Source of the DNA: Candidatus Limnocylindrales bacterium
GTDB lineage: Bacteria > Chloroflexota > Limnocylindria > Limnocylindrales > CSP1-4
Direction of reading: 5' to 3'
Length of the DNA stretch: 64,000 bases
Assembly (NCBI GenBank): GCA_035699445.1
Contig: DASSPX010000123.1
Location: forward strand, 35,777-99,776
How positions within the stretch are numbered: position 1 is the first letter of the stretch; the number at the start of each line of letters is the position of its first letter. The position numbers were made by a program, and so were the translations under genes. The notes beneath the pieces were generated by a model. The model was given only the letters and a program-made list of their open reading frames with translations, made no database searches and had not been told where the DNA came from. This document shows, in pieces, positions 2,073 through 16,713 of this stretch.

Positions 2073-3422
2073 TCACTGCACCTCCGGGCAGCTCGGGCAG
2101 TCCGGGCGCGCCGGCAGGACGAGACGGAGGAGCGAGCGCGCGATCGGCGCCGGGTCGACCCCGTTCTCGTTCATCAGGATCGCGATCGAGATGCCCTCGT
2201 CCGGCAGGTAGCGAACGAACGACCGGAAGCCGAGGAGGCGCCCGGTGTGGCCGACCGCCTCGCGACCCAGGAGCTGCGCGACCTGGATCCCCAGCCCGTA
2301 CGGGACGCGCGCGCCGAGCGCCGCCGTGGCGAGCGCGTCCGCACGCATCGCCGCGCGCGTCGCGCGGCCGAGGACGTCCCGGCCCGCGAGCGCCTCGATC
2401 CATCGCGCCGCGTCGCGCGAGGTGCTCGCCATCGCACCGGCGCCGCCCGCGGCGGTGAGCACCGACCGGAAGGGCATCAGGCCGTCCGGGGCGCCGACGG
2501 CCCGGAACTGCGGGTCGCTGCGGCTGCCGCGCACCCGGTGCCCGCGCGCCGTCGGGACGACCGGCGGCTCGGCGACCTGGGTCCAGGTCTCGGCCAGGCC
2601 GAGCGGCTCGAGCAGCCGCTCGCGCACGACGGCCGCCAGCGACTGACCGGTGACGACCTCGATCAGCTCGCCGAGCAGCAGGTAGTTCGTGTTCGAGTAG
2701 TAGAACCGCGCCCCGGGCGCGCCGATCGGGTCGCGGACGTAGCGGAGCGCGCGCTGCAGGCTCCACGCCGCGTCCGGATCGCCCTGGAGGGCGGCGTCGA
2801 TCCTCGGGTCGAGGAAGTAGTCCGCCAGGCCGCTCGTATGGTCGAACAGCATCCGGATCGTGATCCGGCGATCCAGGTCCAGGTCCGGCAGCAGCGCCGC
2901 CACGGAGGCGTCGAGGTCGAGCTCACCGGACTCGACGAGCAGCAGCCCGACGGCAGCCGTGTACGTCTTCGACACCGAGCCGAGCGCGAACGCCGTGTCC
3001 CGCGTGACGGGCTCGCCCGTGGTCGCGTCCGCGATCCCGGTGGTGCCTGTCCACTCCTCGCCGTCCAGCCACCGGATCGTGACCGCCATCCCGGGGATGC
3101 CGCGGCGCGCCCGGATCGCGTCCAGTCGGCGCTGGAGCGCCGCCGACGGCACGGGGGGCCGCAGATGGCTCATCGGCGGCAGCGGGCGCCCGGTCGACGC
3201 GGTCCCGGGCGAGGCTGGCAGATCGGCCGATGGCGACGGATTCGCCGGCGTCGCCGGGGCGGATGACGTCGGGCTGCCGGCGCTGGGGGCCGCCCCCGAG
3301 CCGACGGGCCCGGCCGGCGGCGGCACCGCCGATCCGCAGCCCGTGATCGCAGTCGCCAGGACGGCCGTGAGCAGCGTCTCGAGCACGCGCCGACGGCGCC
3401 GTGCCGTCCGCTGGGCGATCAT
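2073..3422 (-). CDS. serine hydrolase, beta-lactamase/DD-peptidase family, lipoprotein
   Basis: SVSKTY (SxxK active-site motif) and YSNTNY are present. The N-terminus has a lipobox (LATAITGCGS) followed by a Pro/Ala/Ser-rich linker. ATG at 3422. The upstream part of the ORF (to 3740) is Arg-rich junk. Confidence 0.8.
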   Translation of the reverse strand: MIAQRTARRRRRVLETLLTAVLATAITGCGSAVPPPAGPVGSGAAPSAGSPTSSAPATPANPSPSADLPASPGTASTGRPLPPMSHLRPPVPSAALQRRLDAIRARRGIPGMAVTIRWLDGEEWTGTTGIADATTGEPVTRDTAFALGSVSKTYTAAVGLLLVESGELDLDASVAALLPDLDLDRRITIRMLFDHTSGLADYFLDPRIDAALQGDPDAAWSLQRALRYVRDPIGAPGARFYYSNTNYLLLGELIEVVTGQSLAAVVRERLLEPLGLAETWTQVAEPPVVPTARGHRVRGSRSDPQFRAVGAPDGLMPFRSVLTAAGGAGAMASTSRDAARWIEALAGRDVLGRATRAAMRADALATAALGARVPYGLGIQVAQLLGREAVGHTGRLLGFRSFVRYLPDEGISIAILMNENGVDPAPIARSLLRLVLPARPDCPSCPEVQ

Positions 3423-3595
3423 GCGCGGACGATACGTCGCGCCGCCCGTGCGTTCGGTCCAGCCACCAGCGAGGTGCCGCCATCTCCCCTCCCCCGGGCA
3501 CGTCACGCACCGCTCCCGCGCTCCTGCGCGCCGTCGGGCTCCTGCCGGACGGCCCGGCACGCTGGGGGCGCCCGCTCGCTGCGGCCGGGTCAGGC

Positions 3596-4714
3596 GTGTT
3601 CGTGATCGAGCTCGGGACGCCGCTCCCCACCGCGCCGCTCGACCTCGCACGGGTCGGGAAGTGGATCGAGCGGGTCCCGGACCTTCGGCTCGACGGCGAG
3701 CGGCCCAGCTCCCGCGCGCTGCTCGCCCGCCTCGCCGCATTCTGGCTGCCCGGTGAGCCGATCCTGTTCATCGGGAGCACGGCGGGCTCGGTCGGCGCGC
3801 GCGTCGGGTCGATCGCGCGGACCGCGCTCGGCGAGCGCCGCCCGTCGGCGTCGGCCCACTGGATCCACGCCCTGCGGACCACGGACGACCTCCGCGTCTG
3901 GTGGGCGAGGACGGATGCCCACGAGGAATACGAGGACGCCCTGCTGACCGCGTTCGGCGCCGGTCTGGGTCCGGCCGCCGTCGCCGCCCTGCCGGACACG
4001 CGCGTGATCCTCCCATGGGCGAACCTGCGCACGCCGACGGGCGAGCGGAAGGCCACGGGGATCACGAGCCCCGTCCTGCCCGGAACGCCCGAGCCCGCGC
4101 CACCGCCGGTCACGACGATCGTGGACCTGCCGGCGGGCGAGGCCGACGGCGCGCGGGACGAGGCGGCGCGCCGCGCGCGACCCGCACGCGGTCGGGGAAC
4201 CGGACGGGTCGCCTCGGCGGCCGCGTACGCCGCACAGGGCTCGCCGCGCGTCGCATCCGAACCCGTCTACCTCTCCCCGCAGGGACGGGAGCGCCTCGAG
4301 GCCGAGCTCGAGGAGCTCCGGACGGTCGTTCGCCCCCAGGTGATCGCCCGGATCGCCGCAGCGCGCGAGCTCGGCGACCTGCGCGAGAACAGCGAGTACC
4401 ACGCGGCGCGCGAGGAGCAGTCGTTCCTCGAGGGCCGGATCCGCTCGATCGAGATGCGGCTCCGGTCGGCGGTGGTGATCGACCCCGAGACGCGCGGCAC
4501 GGTCGCGGACCTCGGCTCCACGGTCCGCGTGGAGGTCGACGGCGAGGAGCGGCGCCTGACGATCGTCGGATCGGCCGAGGCGGACCTCGGGGCGGGCCGG
4601 ATCTCGAACGTCTCGCCGGTCGGGCGCGCCCTGCTCGGACGGCGCGCCGGCGACGTGGTGACGATCCGCACGCCCTCGGGCGAGATCCGGTACGCGGTGC
4701 TCGCGATCGAGTAG
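3596..4714 (+). CDS. greA: GreA/GreB-family transcription elongation factor with ~210-aa N-terminal extension
   Basis: The C-terminal ~155 aa (YLSPQGRERLEAELEELR...SPVGRALLGRRAGDVVTIRTPSGEIRYAVLAIE) is a full GreA coiled-coil + FKBP-like domain. There is no stop and no ATG/GTG between the extension and the GreA core, so they appear to be fused. The start is uncertain: the ORF opens at 3401 but overlaps the divergent gene, and GTG 3596 or 3602 is the first plausible start. Confidence 0.65.
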   Translation: MFVIELGTPLPTAPLDLARVGKWIERVPDLRLDGERPSSRALLARLAAFWLPGEPILFIGSTAGSVGARVGSIARTALGERRPSASAHWIHALRTTDDLRVWWARTDAHEEYEDALLTAFGAGLGPAAVAALPDTRVILPWANLRTPTGERKATGITSPVLPGTPEPAPPPVTTIVDLPAGEADGARDEAARRARPARGRGTGRVASAAAYAAQGSPRVASEPVYLSPQGRERLEAELEELRTVVRPQVIARIAAARELGDLRENSEYHAAREEQSFLEGRIRSIEMRLRSAVVIDPETRGTVADLGSTVRVEVDGEERRLTIVGSAEADLGAGRISNVSPVGRALLGRRAGDVVTIRTPSGEIRYAVLAIE

Positions 4715-4723
4715 CCCGGGCGG

Positions 4724-5431
4724 CTACCCGGAGGCGCTGTGGCGTCGCGGAACGAACGCCATCACGAGCACGACCACGCCGAGCACGACGAGCGCGGCCG
4801 GCAGGACCGTGTCGAGGTCCGCGATCCTGTTCCCCGAGAGCCCGATCACGGCCTCGAAGAAGAACGCGAAGCCGAGGAACAGGCCGATCGCGACGAGGAT
4901 CGTCCGCAGGCCGTTCGCGACGATGTCCCGGTAGCCGCGAAACAGGCCGAACAGGAACATCCCGACGCCCACGCCGCCCGGCGCCACGAGCGCCCATGCA
5001 TATGCCCACGTCGCATACAGATCCGTGGCCGACTGGACCCACAGGACGAGGCCGACCATCGTCACGATCCCCCCGGGAATGGCGAGGCCGACCCCGCCGC
5101 GGTCCGGGATGAACAGCGAGCCGATGAGCATCGCCACGCCCGGCACCACGATCCAGAGGGGCCACGTCTCGACGCCCAGCTCGATGGTCACGAAACGGCC
5201 GGCGAGGAAGGCGAGGCCGACCACGACGAGGACCACGCCGGCGACGAGCGGGCCCCGATCGAGCCGCTCGGCCGGCCGGACGGGCGGCGGCGGCGCCGTC
5301 GATTCGGGCGGGTCGGGGGCCGGCGGCTGCGCCGTCGATTCGGTCGCGTCGGGGGCCGGCGGCTGCGCCGGCGTGTCGGCGGGCCAGGGCTCGGTGGTGG
5401 ACGCGTCGGGACGGGTTGGGCGTTCGTCCAT
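4724..5431 (-). CDS. membrane protein with Pro-rich repetitive N-terminus and 5-6 TM helices
   Basis: MDERPTRPD... is followed by PAQPPAPDATESTAQPPAPDPPESTAPPPP and then hydrophobic helices. ATG at 5431 (GTG alternative at 5482). Confidence 0.6.
   Translation of the reverse strand: MDERPTRPDASTTEPWPADTPAQPPAPDATESTAQPPAPDPPESTAPPPPVRPAERLDRGPLVAGVVLVVVGLAFLAGRFVTIELGVETWPLWIVVPGVAMLIGSLFIPDRGGVGLAIPGGIVTMVGLVLWVQSATDLYATWAYAWALVAPGGVGVGMFLFGLFRGYRDIVANGLRTILVAIGLFLGFAFFFEAVIGLSGNRIADLDTVLPAALVVLGVVVLVMAFVPRRHSASG
5281..5400. repeat. tandem direct repeat (~42 bp x ~2.5) inside CDS 4724..5431
   Basis: ggcggctgcgccgtcgattcgg(g/t)cg(g/c)gtcgggggcc is repeated back-to-back. It encodes the PAPD...ST(A)QPP repeats of the N-terminal tail. 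Confidence 0.7.
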
Positions 5432-5514
5432 GGCTGGACTCCAGGCGGCGACGGGCACGTCGAGTCTAGGCCCGCACCCCACCGTCGGTGAGGCCGTGCG
5501 GTGTGGTCAGGGGA

Positions 5515-5688
5515 TCAGCGCGCGAGCGTGAGCCGCAGACCGGCAAGCCGGAGACCCGGGAGGCGGAGGGCGCGCGGGTTCGTGTCGCTCTCCGCGCGGA
5601 AGATCCGTGCCTCGCGTGCGGATCGAGATGCGGCGCGCAGATCGGCCTGGCGCTCCTGCGCGATCTGGAGCTCGATCGGGTGGCGCAT
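5515..5688 (-). CDS. small ORF (57 aa), hypothetical
   Basis: ATG at 5688 is preceded (minus strand) by AGGAGG with a 9-nt spacer (mRNA ...gacAGGAGGaaccccgcgAUG). It encodes MRHPIELQIAQERQADLRAASRSAREARIFRAESDTNPRALRLPGLRLAGLRLTLAR. It lies 158 nt downstream of the LuxR regulator, is not in the ORF track (<60 aa), and is Arg/Leu-rich so could be chance. Confidence 0.25.
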   Translation of the reverse strand: MRHPIELQIAQERQADLRAASRSAREARIFRAESDTNPRALRLPGLRLAGLRLTLAR

Positions 5689-5845
5689 CGCGGGGTTCCT
5701 CCTGTCCCTCGACCCTGGTCCGGGGCGAGTGCTGCGCGGAGGATCGCGCTCGTATCGCCGGTGGCCACCCGGCGCGAATGGGTGCCGCGGCTGGACGAAC
5801 GCCGCACGCGGCTGCGCGTCGAATGTCCTGCCTGGCGGGCGGGCC

Positions 5846-6541
5846 CTACGCCTTCGGCGGCTCCGCGAGCTTGTGCTCGACCGCCCACAGCGCCGCCTGC
5901 GTCCGCGACGCGAGCCCGAGCTTGCCCAGGATGTTCGAGACGTACGTGCGCGCCGTCCGCTCGGTGATGAACAGCTGCGCGCCGATCTCCTTGTTGCTCA
6001 TCCCCTGCCCGAGCAGGCGCATGACGTCCTTCTCGCGCTCCGTGAGCGGCTCGACCGGCTCGGGCTCCTTCTTCGCGCGCATCCGCTGCGCGAGCAGCCG
6101 GGCGACCTGCGGGTCGAGGTGCACCTCGCCGGCGAACGCCGCGCGGATCGCCTGCGCGACCTCCTCGGCCTCGGCGTCCTTGAGCACGTAGCCCGACGCG
6201 CCGGCCTCCAGCGCGGAGGTGACCTTCTCCTCCTCGATGAACGAGGTCATCGTCACGATCTCGGTCTCGGGGAGCTCAGCCTTGATCCGGCCGATCGCGG
6301 TGACGCCGTCCATGTTCGGCATGAGGAGGTCCATCAGGACGACGTCCGGCTTGAGGCGGCGCGCCATCGCCACGCCCTCGCTGCCGTCGGACGCCTCGCC
6401 CACGACTTCGATGTCGTCGACCAGGTCGAAGTACGCCTTGAGGCCCATCCGGACGACCGCGTGGTCGTCCACGAGCAGCACGCGGATGCGGGCGTCGGAT
6501 TCCACGGGGCGTGTCCTCGGAGTGTGGGGAGCGATCGACAT
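5846..6541 (-). CDS. two-component response regulator, NarL/FixJ (LuxR HTH) family
   Basis: Receiver domain (IRVLLVDDHAVVRMGL...DVVLMDLLMPNMDG) plus C-terminal LuxR HTH (LTEREKDVMRLLGQGMSNKEIGAQLFITERTARTYVSNILGKLG). Confidence 0.9.
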   Translation of the reverse strand: MSIAPHTPRTRPVESDARIRVLLVDDHAVVRMGLKAYFDLVDDIEVVGEASDGSEGVAMARRLKPDVVLMDLLMPNMDGVTAIGRIKAELPETEIVTMTSFIEEEKVTSALEAGASGYVLKDAEAEEVAQAIRAAFAGEVHLDPQVARLLAQRMRAKKEPEPVEPLTEREKDVMRLLGQGMSNKEIGAQLFITERTARTYVSNILGKLGLASRTQAALWAVEHKLAEPPKA

Positions 6542-6565
6542 GACGGGCGATGCGGTGGCCCGAGT

Positions 6566-7015
6566 CTAGCGGCCGGGGCTGCGCTCCGCCTCGGGGGGCA
6601 CGCTGCGGGCGCAGCGCGCGACCGCCTCGGCCAACTCCTGCGGTCGGAACGTCTTGCGCAGGAAGCCGTCGGCGCCTGCCGCCCGAACGTCCGGCTCGAG
6701 GCCGGGCGTCGAGGCCATCCCGAGGATGCGTCCACCAGCGCTCACGGCCCGGACCCTGCGGATGAACGCGAGCCCCTGCGCGAGGTCGGGCAGGCGCGGG
6801 TCGACGACGACGACGTCGGGCTGCTCGCGCCGGATGACCGTCAGCGCCTCGGCCGGCCGTCCGGCGCTGCCGACGACGCGACAGCGATCGTGGACCCCGA
6901 GCAGCCGGACGAGGCTTTCCCGCGTCCGGTCATCCGCATCCACGACCACGACGGTGGGCCCCCCGCTCGCGGCGGGCGACGCCTGAACCGGCGCGGGGGA
7001 TACGAGGTCCGTCAT
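6566..7015 (-). CDS. stand-alone response-regulator receiver domain protein
   Basis: The CheY-like fold is visible (TVVVVDADD...DVVVVDPRLPD...ADGFLRKTF). There is no output domain. It sits between the kinase and the LuxR regulator. Confidence 0.7.
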   Translation of the reverse strand: MTDLVSPAPVQASPAASGGPTVVVVDADDRTRESLVRLLGVHDRCRVVGSAGRPAEALTVIRREQPDVVVVDPRLPDLAQGLAFIRRVRAVSAGGRILGMASTPGLEPDVRAAGADGFLRKTFRPQELAEAVARCARSVPPEAERSPGR

Positions 7016-7111
7016 ACCCGGGAGTCTGGCCGGTGTTACATCACACCCGCCAGCGACCCTCGGCCGGTCGCATCTACGTCAAGTGTCGCGGGTCCGCCGA
7101 CGGAAGCCTGA

Positions 7112-10100
7112 TCAGCCGGCCTGGACGTCGCCCGGCGGGGCGCTCATGGCCGACGTGGGCACGACGCACTCGACGACCGTCCCGCGACCCGGCTCGGAGG
7201 TCACCGTGATCCGTCCGCCGAGCTTCTCGGCGCGGGCGCGCATCCCCGCCAGGCCGAGGTGGCCGGCAGGCACCCGCTCCGGATCGAAGCCCCGGCCGTC
7301 GTCGCGCACGACGAGCCGCACGGCATCGGGCTGCTGCTCGATCTCGATCCGGACCTCGCGCGCACCGGCGTGCTTCACGACGTTGTGGAGCGCCTCCTGG
7401 GCGATCCGGTACAGCGTGTCCTCGACCTCGAGCGACGGGCGCTCCGGCAGCTCGCCCTCGAGCACGACCGGCAGCCCGATCCGGCCGGACAGGCCGGCGA
7501 CATGCGTCCGCAGGGCGCCGATCAGGCCGTTCTCGGCCACGTTGCCCGGCCGGAGCTCAAAGATGAGCGCGCGCATCTCGGCCAGGGCGTCGCGCTGGAG
7601 GTCGCGCAGGGCCGCGAGCTTCGCCGGCACCTGCGCGGGATCCTTCGTGAGCAGCATCTCGATGCTCCGCGAAAGGAGGGTCATCGAGAACAGCGCCTGG
7701 GTCACCGAGTCGTGCAGCTCGCGGGCGAGATGGGAGCGCTCCTCGCTCGAGGCGAGCTCGGCGGCCTGGCGCCGCAGGTCGCGCTCGAGGCGGTCGCGCT
7801 CGCTCACGTCGCGCGCCGCACCGTGGGCGCCCGCGAAGCGCCCGTCGACGAGCATCGCGATCCCGGAGATCTCCATCGTCAGCTCACGCCCGTCGCGGGT
7901 CATCACGGGCAGCCGCGACCGGTGGGCCTCGTTCGGACGCCGCGCGAGGTAGCGGAACAGCGTCCGCGCGCGACGCCGGACGTGCGCCGGGGCGAGATCG
8001 TCGAACGTCCGCCCGACGAGCTCGTCCGGACTCCAGCCGAGGATCTGGGCGGTCGTGTCGGAGACGAACGTGAACCGCCCGTCGGCGTCCGTCACCCAGA
8101 CCATGTCGGGCGACGACTGGACGAGGAACCGGTAGCGGCCCTCGGATTCGCGCAGCTCCCGCTCGAGGCGCTCCCGCTCGGTCATGTCCCGGGCCGCGCC
8201 GTAGACGCCCGCGAACCGGCCGTCACGGACGAGGCCGCGCGCGCTCACCTCGAACGGGATCGGCTGCCCGTCCGCGTGGACGAGCAGGTAGCGGAAGACC
8301 ATCTCCTTCGACGGGTCCGCCGCCATCTCCGCGAAGCGCCGGCCGCGCTCCTCGCCGGGCACCCCCTCGGAGATCTCGGCAAAGGGCCGGCCCAGGAGCT
8401 GCTCCGGCCGGTAGCCGAGCGCGCGCTCGATCGTCTCGGACACGTACGTGAGCCGTCCCTGCTCGTCGGTCGAGAAGATGATGTCGGGCGAGTTCTCGAC
8501 GAGGAACCGGTAGCGCTCCTCGGACTCGCGCAGCTCGCGCTCGAGGCGCTCGCGATCGCTGATGTCGCGCAGCGTCCCCTGGGCGCCCGAGAACACGCCG
8601 TCCTCCCAGAACGCGACCGCGGAGACCTCGGCCGGGAACTCGCTCCCGTCGCGCCGGCGAAGCTGGATCCGGATCCGCCACGAGGCGTCGGGCGCGGCGC
8701 GGAGCTCCTCCCAGGCGGCGAGCGCCTGAGGCTGGTCGCGCTCGGCCACGACCAGCGCGTACGACTGGCCGATCAGCTCGTCCGCCCGCCAGCCGAACAG
8801 CTGCTCGGCGCTGTCGGCGATGAACGTGAACCGGCCCTCGGCGTCGTTCCGCCAGATGACGTCCGGCGACGCCTGGACGAGGCCGCGGAACTCCCGCTCC
8901 GATGCCTCGAGGCGCGTGTACAGGTCCGAGTTCGAGAGCGCGATCGCGGCATGGTCCGCGAGCGCCTGGAGGACCTCGAGGCGGTCGCCCGGGATGGGGC
9001 CCGGCGCCGCATAGTTGACGGCGAGCGTGCCGATGACCTCCCCGCCCGGCGCGCGCAGCGGCGCGGCGGCCATCGCGCCCAGCCGGAGCCGTTCGGCAAC
9101 CGCGAGATCGGACGGGTCGCGCGGGATCCGCGGGTCCATCGCGTAGTCCGGGGTCCAGACGACCCGGCCGAGCGAGGCCGCGAGCCCGTTGATGCCGCCG
9201 TCGACCGGGAACTCGAGGCCCTTGATCCAGATCGCGGTCTCGGGATCCTCGGCGCCCGCGACGACCACCGGCCGGAGCACCCGCTCGTCGTCGGCAAGCC
9301 GGGTGAGGTGCGCGCCATCGGAGCCGAGGACCCGCCGCGCCTCCTCGACGATCAGCTCCAGGATCCCCTGCGGGTCCCGGATCGCGGTGATCCGGGCCGC
9401 GATCTCGCGCAGCGTCCGCTCGGTCTCGGCGCGCCGGGCCGTCTCCTCGCGCGACTGCCCGAGGGCACGGATGAGCTCGGCATTCCGGATCGCGATCGCG
9501 GCCTGGTCGGCGAGCGCGCTCAGCTGCCGCTCGACCGTCTCGTCGAACCGGTCGGCATCGGTGGCGACCACGGACAGGACGCCGAGGACCATGCCCTCGG
9601 CGAGGAGCGGGGTGGCGATCGCCGCCTTGTGGCCCTTCGCCCGGGCAAGGGCGTCACCGGACGGCGAGTGGATGAACCGCTCGTCGGACAGGTAGTCGCG
9701 GGTGCGCACGGCCCGCCGCATCCGCACCGCGAGCCCGGAGATGCCCTCCTCGACGTCGCGGACATCGGTCGTGGCGTCGAGCATCGTCACGTCCTCGACC
9801 CCCTGGTCCGCGACCTCGAAGCGCAGCCGACCCGTCGCCGGATCGAGGAGGTGGAGGAACGACATGTCCGAGCCGGCCAGGCGCTTCGCCGCGTCGACGA
9901 TCCGCTGGAGCACCTCGCGCGGCTCGCCGATCGTGGTCAGCTCGGCGACGATCTCGCGGAGCGTGCGCTCCGCGTCGGCCGTCCGACGGAGCGCCTCGCG
10001 CGACGACGCGAGCTCCTCGATCAGCCGGGCGTTCGTGACCGCGATCGCCGCCTGGTCGGCCAGGGACTGGAGGACCGCGGCGTCCTCGGCGCCGAACGCG

Positions 10101-13100
10101 CCCTCGCGCGGGGACACGACCGCGAGCGTCCCGAGCACGCCACCGTCGCCGCCGAGCGGGACGACGAGCATCGACCGGATGCCGATCGAGGCGATGAACT
10201 CGGCGTGCGCGGCCGCGCCGAACCGCTCGTCGCGCGCGTAGTCGCCGGTGATCACGGGCTCCCGGCGCGCGATCGCGAGCTCGGATGCGGCGTCGGTCAG
10301 GCCGCGTCGGTACCACTCGTCGCGCTGCTCGCGGGTGATGCCCACGCCGTGGCCCCAGCGCAGCCGGCCCGCGCCATCGTCGACCAGGTCGATGACCGCC
10401 GATTCCGCCGACAGCAGCCGGGCCGCCTCGCGCGTCACGTCCGCGAGCAGCTCCTTCGGGTCGCGGATGACCGTCAGCCGCCCGGTGAGCTCGCGCAGCG
10501 CGCGCTCCACGTCGGCGGTCTTCGCGAGCGCCTCGCGCGACCTTGCGAGCTGCTCGACCAGCCGCGCATTGGTGACCGCGATCGCGGCCTGGTCGGCGAG
10601 CGACTGGAGGAGCGCGGCGTCGTCCTCGTCGAAGCGGCCGATCTCGCTGGACAGCACCGACAGGGTTCCGAGCGGCCCCTCGTCGCCGACCATCGGAACG
10701 ACGAGCAGGGAGCGCAGCCCGATCTCGTCGAGGAAGGCCGCGTGAGCCTCCGCGCCGAACCGGGGATCGGCGCGGTAGTCGCCGGTGATCACCGCCGAGC
10801 GGGTGTGCATGGCGAGCCGGGAGGCCGGGTCACCCAGGCCGGCCTCGTACCAGCGCGTCCGGAGCCCGCTGTCCACGCCGACGTCGAAGCCCCAGGCGAA
10901 CGTGTCGGTCTCGAGGTCAAGCAGGTCGATGAGCGCGGCGTTCGACCCCAGCAGTCGCGCAGCATCGCGGGTCACGTCGGCGAGCAGCTCCTTCGGATCG
11001 CGGATCGCGGTGAGCCGGCCGGCCATCTCGCGCAGCGAGCGCTCGGCCTCCGCGGTCCGGGCGAGCGCCTCGCGCGAGCGGGCGAGCTCCTCGATCAGGC
11101 GGGCGTTCGTGACCGCGATCGCGGCCTCATTGGCGAGCACCTCGATCCGCGCCGCATCCTCCGGGCCGAACGCATCCGACCGGCGGGACCCGACCTGGAG
11201 CATGCCGAGCAGCCCGCCGTCGCCGAACATCGGGGCGGCGATGACCGACGACATGCCGATCGACCGGGCGTAGGCGTCGGACGTCGGGTCGTGCCGGAAC
11301 GAGCGGTCGGCGAGGTAGTTCCCCGTGATCACGGCGCGGCGCTCCACGATCGCCCGGCTCGACAGCCCCCGGCGCGCCTGCTTCCCCGCGCGGACCGCCG
11401 CGATGCCGGCCGTCGAGCGCCCCGACTCGCCCTGGCCCGGCGGCCACGTCCACTGGGTCCGCCCACCGGTCGGCTCGACGATGTCGATGAGCGCCCAGTC
11501 GGCGGCGACCAGCCGGGGCGCCTCCGCGATGATGCTTTCGAGGACCTGGGCGGGCTCGTGGAGCACGGTGACCCGGGCGGCGATCTCGCGCAGCGCCCGC
11601 TCGGCGTCCGCCGTGCGCGCCAGTGCGGCCTGCGACTGCTCGAGACGGTCGATCAGGCGTGCGTTCATGATCGCGATCGCGGCGTGGGACGCGAGCGCCT
11701 CGACGAGCCGGACCTCATCGTCGCCGAACGCCGCGCGCCGCTGGTGGGCCGCCTGGAGCACGCCGAGCAGTCCGGATTCGCCGATGACCGGCACGACGAC
11801 GATCGACGTGAGGCCCAGCTCGCGCGCCTCGCGGTCGGCCTCGGGGTAGTGCTCGAACCGGTCGTCGTCGAGGTACGCCTCGCTCACGAGCGCCCGATGC
11901 TCGCGGATCGCGATCGCCGTGAGGCCCTTCGCCTTCGAGGGGTCGCCGAGCGGGATCGCCGCGCGGTCGTGGAGGACCATGTCGACCGGGTCGCTCCACA
12001 GGAGACGCCCGGTGACGGGCTCGGCGAGGTCGAGCCGGCAGCGCTCCGCGCCCAGGAGGCGGCGAACCTCGCCCACGATCCGCTGGAGCACCTCGGACGG
12101 GTCACGGATCTCGGACAGCCGGGCGGCGATCTCGCGCAGGGTGCGCTCCTCGTCCGCACGCCGGGCGAGCTCGTCGCGCGAGCGGTCGAGCTGCTCGATG
12201 AGCCGCGCGCGGCCGAGCGCCACGGCCGCCTGGCCGGCGATCGTCTCGAGGACACCCGCCTCGTCCGGCCCGAAGGCGTCCGGCTGCCGCGACCAGACGG
12301 TGAGCGCACCGAACGGACCGTGCTCCGCGACGAGCGGCGCCGCGATCGCGGACCGGATGCCCGTCGCGCGCGCGAACGTGTCCGGCCCCTTCGCGTGCTT
12401 GAACCGGGTGTCGTTCAGGTAGTCGCCGGTCCAGAACGTGACCCCTTCGGTGACGACCTTGCCCGACACGCCCTCGTCGAGGGTCTCGTCGGGGTCGTCC
12501 GGCCATTGCTCCGGGGTGGGCGGCTCCGCGCCGCCGGTGTACGAGCCGCGCAGGAGGTTGATCCGCGGGTCGACGAGGTCGATCCGGGCGCCCTCGCCGC
12601 CGATCAGTCGCAGCGCCTCGTCCACCGCGCGCTGGACGACCTCGGCCGGATCGCTCGCCGCGGAGATCCGGGCGCCGATCTCGCGCAGCGCCTTCTCCAG
12701 CTCCGCCCGCCGCGAGAGTGCCGTCCGGGAGCGGTCGAGCTCCTCGATGAGGCGTGCGTTCGCGATGGCCTGGGCGGCATGGTCGGCAAGGCTGCGGACG
12801 AGGGCGATCTGTGGGGCGGTGAACGCGTCGCGCTCGCGGGAGAACGTGCCGATCGCGCCGTAGACCTCGTCACCCGCGACCATCGGCGCCACGACGAGCG
12901 ACCGGATGCCCACCTCCCGCACGATCCGGTCGGGTCCCGGCGCGTGGACGAACGAGGTGTCGTCCGGGTAGTCGCCGGTGAGCATCACCCGCCGCTCCGC
13001 GACCGCCTTGCCGAACAGGCCCCGGCCGACCTCCACCTCCAGCCGGCGCACCCAGGGCAGCTCGGCCAGGTTCTGGATCCCGGCGTCATGGGTCAGCCGG

Positions 13101-13306
13101 AGGCGGTTCGTGCCCGGGACGAGCAGGTAGAGGAACGTGCCGTCCGCGCCCAGCAGCCGGGCCGCCTCCTCCGCCGCCTGCTCGAGGATCGCGCGGACGG
13201 CCGGCGATTCGATCGCGGACGCGGGAGGCGAGCCGCTCGCCGCGCCCTCGGCATCCGCGCGGCGCGAGCGGTGACGGACGTGACGGTCGAGGGACGGGGC
13301 GCTCAC
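7112..13306 (-). CDS. giant multi-sensor histidine kinase: 8 GAF + 3 PAS + HisKA_3 + HATPase_c (2064 aa)
   Basis: Eight tandem GAF-like modules are each introduced by NARLIEEL(A/D)RSRE(A/T)LARTA(D/E)AERALREIAARL. Three PAS modules follow (RELRESEERYRFLVENSPDIIFSTDEQGRLTYVS and two more). The C-terminus carries a HisKA_3 H-box (LARELHDSVTQALFSM) and HATPase (VRDDGRGFDP...GLAGMRARAEKLGGRITV). GTG start at 13306. Confidence 0.9.
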   Translation of the reverse strand: MSAPSLDRHVRHRSRRADAEGAASGSPPASAIESPAVRAILEQAAEEAARLLGADGTFLYLLVPGTNRLRLTHDAGIQNLAELPWVRRLEVEVGRGLFGKAVAERRVMLTGDYPDDTSFVHAPGPDRIVREVGIRSLVVAPMVAGDEVYGAIGTFSRERDAFTAPQIALVRSLADHAAQAIANARLIEELDRSRTALSRRAELEKALREIGARISAASDPAEVVQRAVDEALRLIGGEGARIDLVDPRINLLRGSYTGGAEPPTPEQWPDDPDETLDEGVSGKVVTEGVTFWTGDYLNDTRFKHAKGPDTFARATGIRSAIAAPLVAEHGPFGALTVWSRQPDAFGPDEAGVLETIAGQAAVALGRARLIEQLDRSRDELARRADEERTLREIAARLSEIRDPSEVLQRIVGEVRRLLGAERCRLDLAEPVTGRLLWSDPVDMVLHDRAAIPLGDPSKAKGLTAIAIREHRALVSEAYLDDDRFEHYPEADREARELGLTSIVVVPVIGESGLLGVLQAAHQRRAAFGDDEVRLVEALASHAAIAIMNARLIDRLEQSQAALARTADAERALREIAARVTVLHEPAQVLESIIAEAPRLVAADWALIDIVEPTGGRTQWTWPPGQGESGRSTAGIAAVRAGKQARRGLSSRAIVERRAVITGNYLADRSFRHDPTSDAYARSIGMSSVIAAPMFGDGGLLGMLQVGSRRSDAFGPEDAARIEVLANEAAIAVTNARLIEELARSREALARTAEAERSLREMAGRLTAIRDPKELLADVTRDAARLLGSNAALIDLLDLETDTFAWGFDVGVDSGLRTRWYEAGLGDPASRLAMHTRSAVITGDYRADPRFGAEAHAAFLDEIGLRSLLVVPMVGDEGPLGTLSVLSSEIGRFDEDDAALLQSLADQAAIAVTNARLVEQLARSREALAKTADVERALRELTGRLTVIRDPKELLADVTREAARLLSAESAVIDLVDDGAGRLRWGHGVGITREQRDEWYRRGLTDAASELAIARREPVITGDYARDERFGAAAHAEFIASIGIRSMLVVPLGGDGGVLGTLAVVSPREGAFGAEDAAVLQSLADQAAIAVTNARLIEELASSREALRRTADAERTLREIVAELTTIGEPREVLQRIVDAAKRLAGSDMSFLHLLDPATGRLRFEVADQGVEDVTMLDATTDVRDVEEGISGLAVRMRRAVRTRDYLSDERFIHSPSGDALARAKGHKAAIATPLLAEGMVLGVLSVVATDADRFDETVERQLSALADQAAIAIRNAELIRALGQSREETARRAETERTLREIAARITAIRDPQGILELIVEEARRVLGSDGAHLTRLADDERVLRPVVVAGAEDPETAIWIKGLEFPVDGGINGLAASLGRVVWTPDYAMDPRIPRDPSDLAVAERLRLGAMAAAPLRAPGGEVIGTLAVNYAAPGPIPGDRLEVLQALADHAAIALSNSDLYTRLEASEREFRGLVQASPDVIWRNDAEGRFTFIADSAEQLFGWRADELIGQSYALVVAERDQPQALAAWEELRAAPDASWRIRIQLRRRDGSEFPAEVSAVAFWEDGVFSGAQGTLRDISDRERLERELRESEERYRFLVENSPDIIFSTDEQGRLTYVSETIERALGYRPEQLLGRPFAEISEGVPGEERGRRFAEMAADPSKEMVFRYLLVHADGQPIPFEVSARGLVRDGRFAGVYGAARDMTERERLERELRESEGRYRFLVQSSPDMVWVTDADGRFTFVSDTTAQILGWSPDELVGRTFDDLAPAHVRRRARTLFRYLARRPNEAHRSRLPVMTRDGRELTMEISGIAMLVDGRFAGAHGAARDVSERDRLERDLRRQAAELASSEERSHLARELHDSVTQALFSMTLLSRSIEMLLTKDPAQVPAKLAALRDLQRDALAEMRALIFELRPGNVAENGLIGALRTHVAGLSGRIGLPVVLEGELPERPSLEVEDTLYRIAQEALHNVVKHAGAREVRIEIEQQPDAVRLVVRDDGRGFDPERVPAGHLGLAGMRARAEKLGGRITVTSEPGRGTVVECVVPTSAMSAPPGDVQAG

Positions 13307-13581
13307 GGCGGAGGGAGTCTACGCCCGGGCCCGATCGGGGACGTACGTCATCCGTCCAGCGCCCGGACGGCGGTCCGTCGAGGGCCGCCTGGACCGGTGT
13401 CGGGGGGCGCGTGGGGGCGATGGTCGCCGGCGGTCGACGACCGACGTCCGGCGTTGCCGCCGCCCCAGCCGCCTACGGTTCGACCCATCACCGCCGGCCG
13501 CGAGGGCCCAGACCCCACGACGGACCGGCACCGCGCTCCAGCCACCCATCTGCGCATTCGCCCCCTGGAGGTCGCACCCCG

Positions 13582-14013
13582 ATGGATCCCCGCACTGACG
13601 AGCCCAGGATCACCGTCGCCGGTCTCGTGCTTCGCTTCGCGATCGTGGCGCTCACGCTCGCGACGGCCTACATCCACAGCACCCTCGGCGGACTGCTGTT
13701 CACCCTGAATGCGACCGGCTACGTCGTCGCCGCCGCCGCGATGGTCGTCCCGCTCGGCATCGCGATCCGCTACCGCTGGTTCATCCGCGCCGGTCTCATC
13801 GGCTACGCGCTGACGACGATCATCGGCTGGGCGATCCAGGGCCCGTACTACTCCACCGCCTACCTGGCGAAGGGGATCGAGGCCGCCCTGATCCTGTTCG
13901 TGGTCGTCGACTTCCTGCGCGCCGACGGCAACCCGGTCACGGTGGTCAAGCGCGAGCTCGCGCAGATCGCCGCGGCCGTCCGGAGCCGCCGCACGGGCGC
14001 CGAGGCCGCCTGA
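13582..14013 (+). CDS. small integral membrane protein (4 TM), hypothetical
   Basis: ATG at 13582 is preceded by GGAGG at 13566-13570. MDPRTDEPRITVAGLVLRFAIVALTLATAYIHSTLGG... is hydrophobic throughout. The upstream part of ORF 13411.. is Arg/Pro junk. Confidence 0.55.
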   Translation: MDPRTDEPRITVAGLVLRFAIVALTLATAYIHSTLGGLLFTLNATGYVVAAAAMVVPLGIAIRYRWFIRAGLIGYALTTIIGWAIQGPYYSTAYLAKGIEAALILFVVVDFLRADGNPVTVVKRELAQIAAAVRSRRTGAEAA

Positions 14014-14112
14014 CCGGCCCCGGTCACAGCCACGAAGCGTCCCGCCCACGAACCGTCCCGCGCCGCCCGTCGGCGCGGGACGACCGCACGCACGTCCTGG
14101 GAGGTCACCCGC

Positions 14113-14514
14113 ATGCAGCGCCTCGCCGCGAGCCTCGCGCTCGCCGCCGCCACCCTCGTCCTCGCAGCCTGCTCCTCGTCCGCGCCCACGCCGGCCGACC
14201 CGACGACGGCGCCATCCACATCGGCCGGCAACGGCGACGCCCCGATCGTCATTGCCCGCGACCTGGCCTTCACCACGACCGAGCTCGAGGTGCCGGCGGG
14301 ACAGGAGTTCTCCCTCGTGTTCGACAACCAGGAGGGCCCGCCGCACAACGTCGCGATCTACACCGACGAGTCGGCGTCCCAGCAGGTGTTCGTGGGCGAG
14401 ATCTTCAGCGGGCCGGCGACCCGGACGTACAGCGTGCCGGCCCTCGCCCCCGGCAGCTACTTCTTCCGGTGCGACGTGCACCCGAGCATGCAGGGGACGG
14501 TGGTCGCGCAGTAG
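14113..14514 (+). CDS. cupredoxin (amicyanin/pseudoazurin-like blue copper) lipoprotein
   Basis: Signal peptide + lipobox (LVLAACSS). The copper site is PPHNVAIY ... YFFRCDVHPSMQGTVV (His...Cys-x2-His-x2-Met, as in amicyanin). GGGAGG lies 9 nt upstream of ATG 14113. Confidence 0.8.
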   Translation: MQRLAASLALAAATLVLAACSSSAPTPADPTTAPSTSAGNGDAPIVIARDLAFTTTELEVPAGQEFSLVFDNQEGPPHNVAIYTDESASQQVFVGEIFSGPATRTYSVPALAPGSYFFRCDVHPSMQGTVVAQ

Positions 14515-14620
14515 GCGACCTCCCTCGCGACCCACGTCCGGCCCCGGCCCGCCCAGCGCGGTCCGGGGCCGCCCCATGCCCGGCGTGCGAGACTCTCGGC
14601 CGCAAGCTCGAGGAGGGGTG

Positions 14621-15559
14621 ATGCTGGAGATCGTTGACCTCGTGAAGCGCTACGGCGACGTGGTGGCGCTCGACGGGGCGACCTTCACCGCCCGGCGGGG
14701 ACGGCTGGTCGGGTTCCTGGGTCCGAACGGCGCCGGCAAGACGACCACGATGCGCGCGATCTTCGACCTCATCCTCCCGGATCGGGGCGAGGTCCGCTGG
14801 GATGGCCGGGCGATCGACCTCGCGGCCCGCCTCCGGTTCGGCTACATGCCCGAGCAGCGCGGGCTCTACCCGCGGATGCGCGTCCACGAGCAGCTCGTGT
14901 ACTTCGCGCAGCACCATGGGCTCGACGGCCGCGCGGCCGCAGGGGCGGCGACGCGCTGGCTGGACCGGCTGGGTCTCGCGGACCGGGCGGCCTCGAAGCT
15001 CGAGGACCTCAGTCACGGCAACCAGCAGCGGGTTCAGCTCGCGACGGCGCTCGTGCACGACCCGGAGCTGCTCGTGCTCGACGAGCCGTTCAGCGGCCTC
15101 GACCCGATCGGGATCGCCACGATGACCGAGGTGCTCCGCGAGCGCGCCGCCGCGGGCGTGGGCGTGATCTTCTCGTCGCACCAGCTCGACCTCGTCGAGG
15201 ACGTGTGCGAGGACGTCGTGATCATCAGCCGCGGGCGCGTCGTCGCGGAGGGATCGATCGAGGAGCTCCGCGCCCGTGCCGGGCGCCGGCACCTCGAGGT
15301 CGAGGTCCGTGGTGGCAACGGGAGCTGGCTCCCGGATGGCGGCGAGCTGACGATCCTCGAGCGCAGCGGGAGCCGCGTGAAGCTGCTCGTGGACGAGCGG
15401 GTGGACCTCGAGGCGCTGCTCGCTCGCGCCCGGGCGACCGGCGAGGTCACGCGCTTCAGCTACGAGCCGCCGCGGCTGTCGGAGCTGTTCATGGAGGCGG
15501 TGACCCAGCCCCAGGCGGGGACGGCCGAGCAGGCCGCAGCAGCCGGAGCTGCCCGATGA
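14621..15559 (+). CDS. ABC transporter ATP-binding protein (ABC-2/DrrA-like exporter)
   Basis: Walker A GPNGAGKTT, signature LSHGNQQRV, Walker B LLVLDEPFSGLD. AGGAGG lies 5 nt upstream of ATG 14621. The stop overlaps the next start (ATGA). Confidence 0.9.
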   Translation: MLEIVDLVKRYGDVVALDGATFTARRGRLVGFLGPNGAGKTTTMRAIFDLILPDRGEVRWDGRAIDLAARLRFGYMPEQRGLYPRMRVHEQLVYFAQHHGLDGRAAAGAATRWLDRLGLADRAASKLEDLSHGNQQRVQLATALVHDPELLVLDEPFSGLDPIGIATMTEVLRERAAAGVGVIFSSHQLDLVEDVCEDVVIISRGRVVAEGSIEELRARAGRRHLEVEVRGGNGSWLPDGGELTILERSGSRVKLLVDERVDLEALLARARATGEVTRFSYEPPRLSELFMEAVTQPQAGTAEQAAAAGAAR

Positions 15560-16713
15560 GCCGGGCGCGATCGGTCTGGCTGGTGGCCCGGCGCGAGATC
15601 CTCGAGCGCGGCCGGAGCCGCGGCTACCTGCTGTCGCTCGTGCTCACGATCGTCCTCCTCGGGGCCGGGTTCGGCCTGCCCGTCCTGCTCGGTGGCGACG
15701 AGAAGACGCTCGAGATCGGCTTCATCGGCGACACGCCGGCAGCCCTGGAGCCCGCGATCCGCTCGGTCGCGACGGCGTTCGACGAGGACGCCTCGGTGGA
15801 GGTGACCCGCTACCCGGACCGGGCGAGCGCCGAGGCGGCCCTCGAGGCCGAGACGATCGAGGCGGCGGTCGCCGTCCCCGCAGACCTCTCGTCCCCGGGG
15901 GAGATCGTGGTTCGCGAGGCGCTCGACAACACGCCGCGCGCGATCCTGACCCAGGCGATCGTGGGCCTGCGGGCCGGGGCGGCGCTCGCGCCCCCCGAGG
16001 TCGTCGCGCTCGACCCGCGCTCCGACGAGGACGCGACCGCGTTCGTCTTCGCGAACGCCGGGATCATCCTCATGTTCATCGGGATCTTCTCGTACGGCTA
16101 CTGGGTGCTGGGCGGGGTCGTGGAGGAGAAGCAGAGCCGGGTCGTGGAGGTCGTGCTCGCCACCGTCCGGCCACGGGACCTGCTCATGGGCAAGGTCTTC
16201 GGGATCGGCATCCTCGGCCTGGGCCAGCTGGTGTTCCTCGTCGCCGCCGGGCTCCTCGTCAGCCAGCTCAGCGGGCGGCTTGCGCTCCCGCCCACGACCG
16301 CGGTGTCCGTCGTCACGCTCGTCGTGTGGTTCGTCCTCGGGTACGTCCTGTACTCGACGGCGCTCGGGTTCCTCGGTGCGCTCGCGTCGCGCATGGAGGA
16401 GGCCTCGAACGTGACCACGCCGGTGACGATGGTCGCGATGCTCAGCTACTTCGCGGCGATCCTGCTCGTGACCGACGACCCGGACGGGCTGCTGGCGCGC
16501 GTGCTCACGTTCATCCCGCCGTCGGCACCGATGGTCGTCCCGCTCCGCGCGGCCCTCGACGCGATCGAGGCCTGGGAGATCCTGCTGGCCGTCGCGGTGA
16601 TGCTCGCGGCGATCTACGGGCTGTTCGTCGTCGGCGGGCGCGTGTACTCGGGCGCCGTGCTCCAGGTGGGTGCGCGGATGAAGCTGCGCGACGCGTGGCG
16701 CGGGTCGCGGTAG
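15556..16713 (+). CDS. ABC-2 family transporter permease
   Basis: MSRARSVWLVARREILE... is followed by 6 TM helices typical of ABC-2 (NatB/YhaP-like) permeases. Start ATG 15556 overlaps the upstream TGA. Confidence 0.8.
   Translation: MSRARSVWLVARREILERGRSRGYLLSLVLTIVLLGAGFGLPVLLGGDEKTLEIGFIGDTPAALEPAIRSVATAFDEDASVEVTRYPDRASAEAALEAETIEAAVAVPADLSSPGEIVVREALDNTPRAILTQAIVGLRAGAALAPPEVVALDPRSDEDATAFVFANAGIILMFIGIFSYGYWVLGGVVEEKQSRVVEVVLATVRPRDLLMGKVFGIGILGLGQLVFLVAAGLLVSQLSGRLALPPTTAVSVVTLVVWFVLGYVLYSTALGFLGALASRMEEASNVTTPVTMVAMLSYFAAILLVTDDPDGLLARVLTFIPPSAPMVVPLRAALDAIEAWEILLAVAVMLAAIYGLFVVGGRVYSGAVLQVGARMKLRDAWRGSR

Follow-up and report, generated by a model that had tools for sequence, protein, structure and literature searches.

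Among described systems, those closest to the gene considered here are regulators that place GAF domains in tandem. In Mycobacterium tuberculosis, the kinases DevS (DosS) and DosT carry GAF domains in tandem ahead of a HisKA_3 and a HATPase_c domain, and have a NarL/LuxR-type partner, DevR. Tandem GAF-A/B units are also found in PDE2A, PDE5, PDE6 and CyaB2. In multi-GAF cyanobacteriochromes, serial GAF domains feed a kinase or chemotaxis output, and according to reviews as many as seven GAF domains can follow one another in a single protein (PMC6696110, PMC5812497). We analyzed a 64,000-nucleotide (nt) stretch of DNA from Candidatus Limnocylindrales bacterium (phylum Chloroflexota; assembly GCA_035699445.1, contig DASSPX010000123.1, positions 35,777 to 99,776), hereafter called the window, whose minus strand encodes at 7112..13306 a sensor histidine kinase of 2064 amino acids (aa) with eight GAF modules (G1 to G8). 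This kinase is closest to DevS/DosT-DevR in design and to the tandem-GAF regulators in structure. Our results make it probable that the protein is a soluble HisKA_3 sensor kinase with an ancient GAF array that has been kept by selection, and that the interior of the array has been remodelled by recombination between the segments that encode the linkers.

The translated open reading frame (ORF) and Pfam agreed with a first-pass annotation, which a model had made from the letters of the window and which had proposed eight GAF modules, three PAS modules and a HisKA_3/HATPase core (Table 1). All eight repeated modules were assigned to GAF in the domain search (PF01590/PF13185/PF13492), in eight stretches (GAF_2, 4.9e-137; GAF, 2.7e-123; GAF_3, 2.7e-73), and PAS, PAS_4 and PAS_9 each matched three stretches. 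The HisKA_3 domain (Pfam, 8.9e-17) contains the phospho-acceptor H-box ARELHDSVTQ, which has the (E/D)LHD pattern, and is followed by HATPase_c (6.5e-19). The core was closest to the ATPase chains of DesK, VraS and DevS (1e-19 for DesK chains); both the H-box and the ATPase boxes HN, DDG-GF and G-GL-GM are intact, and neither varies among orthologues. From these features, the kinase appears to belong to the HisKA_3 class of the NarX/DesK/DevS type. An NCBIfam scan of the kinase gave no equivalog above its cut-off, and the MadS, NarX and LiaS models matched the kinase core only. The longest run of the residues VLIFMWA is six, with no long hydrophobic stretch, and the protein is presumably soluble and cytoplasmic. 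As in DevS, a GAF-to-GAF helix carries an AIAxxNARL motif, and the ATPase domain matches the DevS and DosT chains; unlike DevS, which has two GAF domains, the protein has eight as well as three PAS modules, and a stand-alone receiver is encoded in addition. CyaB2 (1ykd) gave the best sequence-profile match (2e-10), and in both proteins the GAF domains are joined by a long continuous helix, although the GAF domains of CyaB2 and the phosphodiesterases come in pairs rather than in eights and lack the histidine kinase output.

We next compared the kinase with its homologues, using the best 120 of 564 strong homologues (lengths 1333–2522 aa). All 120 carried GAF and PAS families, HisKA_3 and HATPase_c were present in all but two partial entries, and those that were named came mostly from metagenome-assembled genomes (MAGs) of Limnocylindrales or Chloroflexota. 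Modules counted with a hidden Markov model (HMM) numbered 4 (n = 6), 5 (17), 6 (24), 7 (46), 8 (15) or 9 (12) per protein, with a pitch of ~182 aa, and 86 fetched loci, some of them on contigs of 1–3.7 Mb, held 3–9 modules with a pitch of 540–570 nt. The multi-GAF/PAS design is typical of the kinase's family in Limnocylindria. At syntenic loci, the orthologues carried 5, 6, 7, 8 or 9 modules, so that module count, which the first-pass annotation had proposed to compare, does differ among them. The full gene order is common to the window and to orthologues with 5 (P0004), 7 (P0056) and 9 (P0015, P0023) modules; the contig of the closest relative, the six-module P0002, stops just upstream of the kinase and shows the downstream half of this order only. 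Because the neighbourhood order is conserved, the loci with unequal module numbers are true orthologues. Throughout the family, large score margins mark G1, G2 and G8 as position-specific orthologues, and the interior modules vary in number and type. The order in the nearest relatives is G1-G2-G3-c7-G8; the window's protein has no module that belongs to the cluster c7.

The positions at which modules were gained or lost were mapped in two independent close pairs. In the first, P0002 is ~94% identical to the window's kinase overall; its modules are 91–97% identical to G1–G4, G7 and G8, its C-terminal part is 92% identical, and it lacks exactly G5 and G6 (358 aa, 1074 nt) in frame. P0002 was assembled from two samples (SRR28401802 and SRR28285651) with identical results, and its DNA follows the G4 copy to about nt 2170 of the gene and the G6/G7 copy from about nt 2180. 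The two linker-coding segments that meet there (Table 1) share 44 nt with 2 mismatches, including 23 nt of exact identity at 11100-11122, and no two junctions have an exact in-register match longer than 26 nt. The second pair consists of P0055, with 8 modules, and P0104, with 7. Their C-terminal parts are 99% identical, the difference is a single internal module of 180 aa, and here too the crossover falls in the linker. Three further close pairs (P0038/P0058, P0043/P0072 and P0003/P0018) gave offset alignments with a one-module difference each, which is consistent with internal indels of whole modules.

The proportion of synonymous differences (pS) between the window and P0002 is ~0.26 (synonymous divergence, dS, ~0.3), whereas the synonymous differences between G5 and G6 are saturated, and a more distant orthologue has one module of the G5/G6 type. 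These comparisons are most simply read as a deletion in the P0002 lineage, and we infer from them that the event was a loss. Since the junction homologies are short, the recombination could be RecA-dependent or could proceed by slippage or microhomology. We propose that G1, G2 and G8 stay fixed and that interior modules are gained or lost whole through recombination between linker-coding segments, which would always keep the reading frame and the helical register. The first-pass annotation had suggested a region that expands and contracts; this holds on an evolutionary scale, given the 5–9 modules and the breakpoints in linkers, but not in the sense of a young locus of near-identical copies.

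A helix of ~35 aa had been noted at the start of each module. It is present on G2–G8 (seven of the eight modules) as NARLIEELxRSRExLARTAxAERxLREIAARL, and G1 has an N-terminal tail instead. We aligned 803 modules from the 120 homologues to the module HMM, in which the linker makes up the first 38 columns, and found zero indels in any linker-bearing module (~680 linkers). Positions N1, L4, L8, S11, A19, E22, L25 and R26 are near-invariant, and the conserved positions N1, L4, L8, S11, L15, R18, E22, L25, A29 and I32 are spaced by 3–4 residues, which makes a heptad pattern whose core positions include polar residues. The AlphaFold2 prediction for G6-G7 with the next linker (mean predicted local distance difference test score, 81.7; predicted template modelling score, pTM, 0.52) contained two GAF folds, in which the last helix of each GAF runs through the linker as one helix (residues 161–211 and 344–397) and is shortly broken at an R-D-P motif ahead of the next GAF. 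The best Foldseek matches to this two-module model were the tandem GAF-A/B units of PDE2A, CyaB2 and PDE5A, with E-values for the PDE2A, PDE5, PDE6 and CyaB2 units of 6e-16 to 1e-12, together with phytochrome GAF-PHY pairs.

We also considered whether the linker is an S-helix, which it resembles as a heptad-patterned helix of ~40 residues between signalling domains with Asn at an 'a' position and conserved polar core residues. The S-helix signature is ERT, with Arg at a 'd' position 10 residues past the 'a'-position Asn (PMC1592074). This identity was rejected: the linker has R10-S11-R12 where ERT is expected, at the same spacing from N1. Anantharaman, Balaji and Aravind (2006) likewise treated inter-GAF linkers as a class separate from the S-helix (PMC1592074).

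The ratio of nonsynonymous to synonymous divergence (dN/dS) between the window and P0002 was 0.04–0.18 for each shared module, each PAS module and the kinase core; among the interior modules, it was 0.13 for G3, 0.09 for G4 and 0.05 for G7. Profile columns 62–104, which extend from the end of the first strand through two short helices, are the least alike between modules (22% identity) and are 93% conserved between orthologous modules. Such a pattern is better explained by module-specific function than by featureless spacers, and the module-specific purifying selection would be compatible with the multi-ligand integration that the first-pass annotation had offered as one possibility.

The candidate ligands named there, cGMP/cAMP and a bilin, did not find their signatures in the modules. 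In contrast to the PDE and CyaB2 GAF domains, the modules lack the N-K pair of the NKFDE signature for cyclic nucleotides, and the LLNK/LVNK sites of CyaB2 read S-R, S-S, Q-R, S-P, A-T and Y-A. No module column has Cys at more than 5%, the 2064 residues include two Cys, and, unlike in cyanobacteriochromes, neither a conserved Cys nor a DxCF motif was found; a covalently bound bilin is therefore very unlikely and an Fe-S cluster unlikely. In the PAS region, the LOV motif NCRF(L) was not found, and PAS1, the stretch that matches FixL chains, contains no His at all, which excludes haem of the FixL type in PAS1. A motif of Y114-x2-D117-x2-F120-x-H122-x4-D127 is conserved (profile columns 114–127; G1 aa 113–126 and G2 aa 296–309), and its His is found in 120/120 first, 110/120 second, 274/443 middle and 82/120 last modules (73% overall). 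In an hhalign comparison of the profile with DevS GAF-A that spans the whole domain (probability 95%, E 2e-8; DevS sequence verified as PDB 2w3d), this His sits in a gapped loop, two positions ahead of the haem ligand His149, and the position of the distal Tyr171 is S, A, Q or T. The conserved His near the haem position of DevS may be taken as a lead, no more.

With these observations, the ancient array kept by selection may be pictured to work as follows. The last helices of the GAF domains and the 38-residue linkers would form, in the dimer, one long helical spine, along which a change induced by a ligand in any module, possibly a distinct ligand for each, would pass to the dimerisation/phospho-acceptor and ATPase core. 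Phosphate would then be transferred from this core to the NarL-type regulator encoded next to the kinase, and the stand-alone receiver would compete as an acceptor and so act as a phosphate sink or modulator. Several points weigh against this account. The steps that involve ligand, cofactor, dimer and phosphotransfer all draw on homology; the structural model is monomeric, with a pTM of just 0.52; the junction homologies are short (10–26 nt exact); and the eight-module allele is known from one assembly only. In addition, a second carrier of the G5-G6 pair was not found, so that the direction of the event depends on the comparison above: a search with the G5G6 protein returned nothing above 50% identity, and degenerate-codon scans for G5-G6 gave 0 hits both in JGI metagenome contigs and in the 86 fetched loci, with a pattern that does recover G5 and G6 in the window.

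A bolder form of the proposal is that the array is a plug-and-play rod in which each GAF is a separate sensor, perhaps of haem or a metal bound through Y-x2-D-x2-F-x-H-x4-D, that is swapped at the linker. We consider this form unlikely; if it is true, closely related strains differ in what one regulatory circuit senses. The opposite possibility, that the interior GAF domains are ligand-free spacers which set the length of the rod or its dimerisation surface and that only G1/G2 and/or G8 and the PAS modules sense, has the position specificity of G1, G2 and G8 alone in its favour, as well as an interior number that varies from protein to protein, the loss of one or two interior modules tolerated by close relatives, and the fact that conservation is highest in the spine (linker and terminal helices). 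However, purifying selection on the interior modules is as strong as on the rest of the protein, the segment that differs most between modules is the one conserved at 93% between orthologues, and the Y-x2-D-x2-F-x-H motif is retained in most interior modules, and we regard such spacers as quite improbable.

The first-pass annotation had instead taken the modules to be near-identical and recently duplicated, with a repeat visible at the DNA level. The periodicity was confirmed: direct repeats with a period of 537–558 bp were found (7 copies of 282 nt, 60–75% identity), and the PAS units repeat with a period of 378 bp. A young tandem duplication at a hypervariable locus, with copy number shifting on short time scales, would account for this periodicity and for the differences in copy number between relatives that are ~94% and ~99% identical. 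However, pairs of modules are 28–42% identical in protein and 50–59% in DNA, G5/G6 being the sole exception (63% and 70%), and synonymous differences are saturated for every module pair (pS 0.35–0.48; G5/G6, 0.40). None of the module duplications of the kinase gene is recent. The junctions share at most 26 nt of exact sequence, and the copies have diverged too far for Tandem Repeats Finder, which reported no array of long period. Since the divergence between the window and its relative already amounts to dS ~0.3, module indel events are rare, and a young duplication is very improbable. An assembly artefact, by which the eight-module gene would be a mis-assembled expansion or the six-module relative a collapsed repeat, is equally hard to credit: both alleles do come from short-read metagenome assemblies, the eight-module allele from a single contig, but the repeats are too divergent to mislead an assembler, the six-module allele is identical in two samples, Mb-scale contigs give the same range of 3–9 modules at an exact pitch of 540–570 nt, and the composition of G5 and G6 is the same and their module structure intact.

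The periodicity also appears on the opposite strand, where all six ORF starts listed by the first-pass annotation (9702, 10248, 10785, 11325, 11919 and 12438, plus strand) are present. Six of the seven stops of these periodic antisense ORFs are TAG triplets that arise from Tyr codons of the sense strand, three of them within the invariant TGDY (GDY) motif; the ORFs are therefore a by-product of the module period in G+C-rich (74%) DNA. Another antisense ORF, in a different frame (7259..13708, plus strand, 2149 aa), covers the entire kinase gene, and its translation is rich in Arg, Asp and Gly and shows nothing that resembles a domain. Gene callers could mistake this ORF for a gene, but it is an artefact of the high G+C content. 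Long ORFs occur on both strands because the G+C content around the site is 73–77%, and of the two overlapping long ORFs only the one on the minus strand encodes a protein.

Downstream of the kinase on the same strand, Pfam confirmed the stand-alone receiver and the NarL/LuxR regulator of the first-pass annotation. The three-gene order of kinase, receiver and NarL/LuxR regulator is kept in every syntenic orthologue examined. The regulator matches Response_reg (2.9e-27) and GerE (6e-20) and has the receiver pattern DD...D...T...K; its best NCBIfam match is NarL, at 193 bits under a cut-off of 250 bits, and it is thus a member of the NarL/FixJ family but not NarL itself. In the stand-alone receiver, the acidic pocket D-x-D-D, Asp72 and Lys121 are kept in 6/6 orthologues, and the Thr/Ser position is variable. 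Across the conserved neighbourhood, in the window as in five orthologous loci, none of the genes matched an Hpt family; a His-Asp-His-Asp phosphorelay, the relay option raised earlier, is therefore unsupported, and the receiver is more likely a competing acceptor (sink or modulator).

An operon that diverges from the kinase (13411..16713, plus strand) encodes a small hypothetical protein of ~142 aa with a weak DUF7475 match, a cupredoxin, a DrrA-type ABC ATPase and an ABC-2 permease, and is syntenic with the kinase in 4/4 orthologous loci whose contig reaches upstream of the kinase. This cupredoxin/ABC operon is a possible target of the regulator. A 409-aa ORF that overlaps it (13348..14577, minus strand) has no Pfam match and is probably spurious. 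On the other flank, the kinase, the receiver and the receiver-GerE regulator usually precede an unannotated protein (LiaF-like in some loci), a long GreA-like gene and a beta-lactamase-fold gene. In the window, the protein past the regulator (4724..5482, minus strand, 252 aa) has a weak LiaI-LiaF-like transmembrane match; it recurs in several of the orthologous loci and is missing from others. The GreA/GreB-like protein (3401..4714, plus strand) has its GreA domains confined to residues 289–437, with an N-terminal extension of ~290 aa that has no Pfam match, and long GreA-like forms (372–427 aa) lie beside the kinase locus in every orthologous neighbourhood. Scans for promoters and terminators in 5300-7300 and 13200-14200 gave no match, an outcome that carries no information at 74% G+C.

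Table 1. Features of the kinase locus in the window and related features at other loci (prefix L). Module boundaries were placed at the linker Asn.
Feature	Position	Strand	Basis or remark
NarL/FixJ-type response regulator, receiver + GerE helix-turn-helix, 231 aa	5846..6541	-	Pfam; NCBIfam
Stand-alone receiver, 149 aa, Asp72 acceptor, Lys121	6566..7015	-	Pfam Response_reg; alignment with five orthologues
Sensor histidine kinase, 2064 aa	7112..13306	-	ORF, translation, Pfam
HATPase_c catalytic domain, aa 1961-2051	7154..7426	-	
HisKA_3 dimerisation/phospho-acceptor domain, aa 1856-1921	7544..7741	-	
Three PAS modules, ~aa 1459-1594, 1595-1720, 1721-1846	7769..8932	-	Pfam and direct repeats
GAF module G8, aa 1275-1458	8933..9484	-	Final GAF; distinct subtype, highly conserved across orthologues
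GAF module G7, aa 1092-1274	9485..10033	-	
Linker-coding homology, G6/G7 junction	10008..10051	-	Right breakpoint partner; codes AAIAVTNARLIEEL
GAF module G6, aa 913-1091	10034..10570	-	63% identical to G5; missing in closest relative
GAF module G5, aa 734-912	10571..11107	-	Missing in closest relative
Linker-coding homology, G4/G5 junction	11082..11125	-	Left breakpoint partner; codes AAIAVTNARLIEEL
GAF module G4, aa 548-733	11108..11665	-	
GAF module G3, aa 366-547	11666..12211	-	
GAF module G2, aa 183-365	12212..12760	-	Linker + GAF; position-specific orthologue family-wide
GAF module G1, aa 1-182	12761..13306	-	N-terminal tail replaces linker; position-specific orthologue family-wide
Cupredoxin gene	14113..14514	+	Divergent syntenic neighbour operon
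GreA-like long form, L003	14397-15566		
GreA-like long form, L004	14377-15660		
GreA-like long form, L005	15545-16795		
Loci with 915-933-nt steps			L053, L055, L057, L058, L064, L065, L069, L070, L073, L079, L086

A long array of sensor modules had been called unusual, and the distribution of related proteins speaks otherwise. When one genome per GTDB species was scanned, at least 566 loci proved to encode relatives of the part from G8 to the kinase, and the best 80 of these were all from Chloroflexota-type MAGs; in the 86 fetched loci, as noted, the array comprised 3–9 modules. Among 1.84 billion representatives, the module profile matched 114,109 proteins at E <= 1e-3, with up to 21 stretches per protein among the matches listed. 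Pfam confirmed 19 GAF domains in P0172 (3952 aa), 18 in P0215 (3792 aa) and 11 in P0165 (2234 aa), and P0161 (3673 aa) is likewise a giant multi-GAF protein in public data. Since proteins with 11–19 confirmed GAF domains exist elsewhere, eight are unremarkable. P0172, P0165 and P0215 are the same kind of protein as the kinase, namely cytoplasmic multi-PAS/GAF histidine kinases; P0172 and P0165, however, carry HisKA and HATPase domains rather than HisKA_3 and are only distantly related to it. The Limnocylindria family is marked off by its invariant linker and by the fixed G1-G2...G8 frame. Our literature search on multi-GAF arrays returned cyanobacteriochrome papers and general reviews, with an irrelevant match to 'consecutive GAF domains' in Deinococcus, and a 2026 paper on Limnocylindria genomics mentions none of GAF, histidine kinase or two-component.

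Some further features of the loci were observed. In a paralogous subfamily (Table 1), steps of 915–933 nt separate some GAF domains, which is the size of a GAF + PAS unit and hence indicates interleaved PAS modules. The contigs of L009, L020, L060 and L076 and of P0059, P0077 and P0089 are labelled Verrucomicrobiia, Saccharimonadales, Egibacteraceae or Clostridia in the MAG records; such labels on Limnocylindria-type loci are probably binning or taxonomy errors. The kinase frame is split over two or three frames, with the pitch intact, in L007, L015, L017, L034, L040, L043, L050, L064, L072 and L084, and most of these are MFD-series MAGs. The split frames may be assembly indel errors rather than pseudogenes.

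The gene itself is ordinary: the kinase is identical to an NCBI nr entry, the 'GAF domain-containing protein' of Candidatus Limnocylindrales bacterium on a 107-kb MAG contig, so that it was already deposited and annotated, and its design is standard in its lineage. The locus family is a clean natural case of domain-array evolution, with syntenic single-locus orthologues that, among the loci checked, carry 5–9 modules. Should the modules turn out to sense independently of one another, the family would provide a useful model for the passage of a signal through a long series of domains by way of a coiled-coil spine, and for how bacteria may alter their sensory repertoire without rewiring the output.

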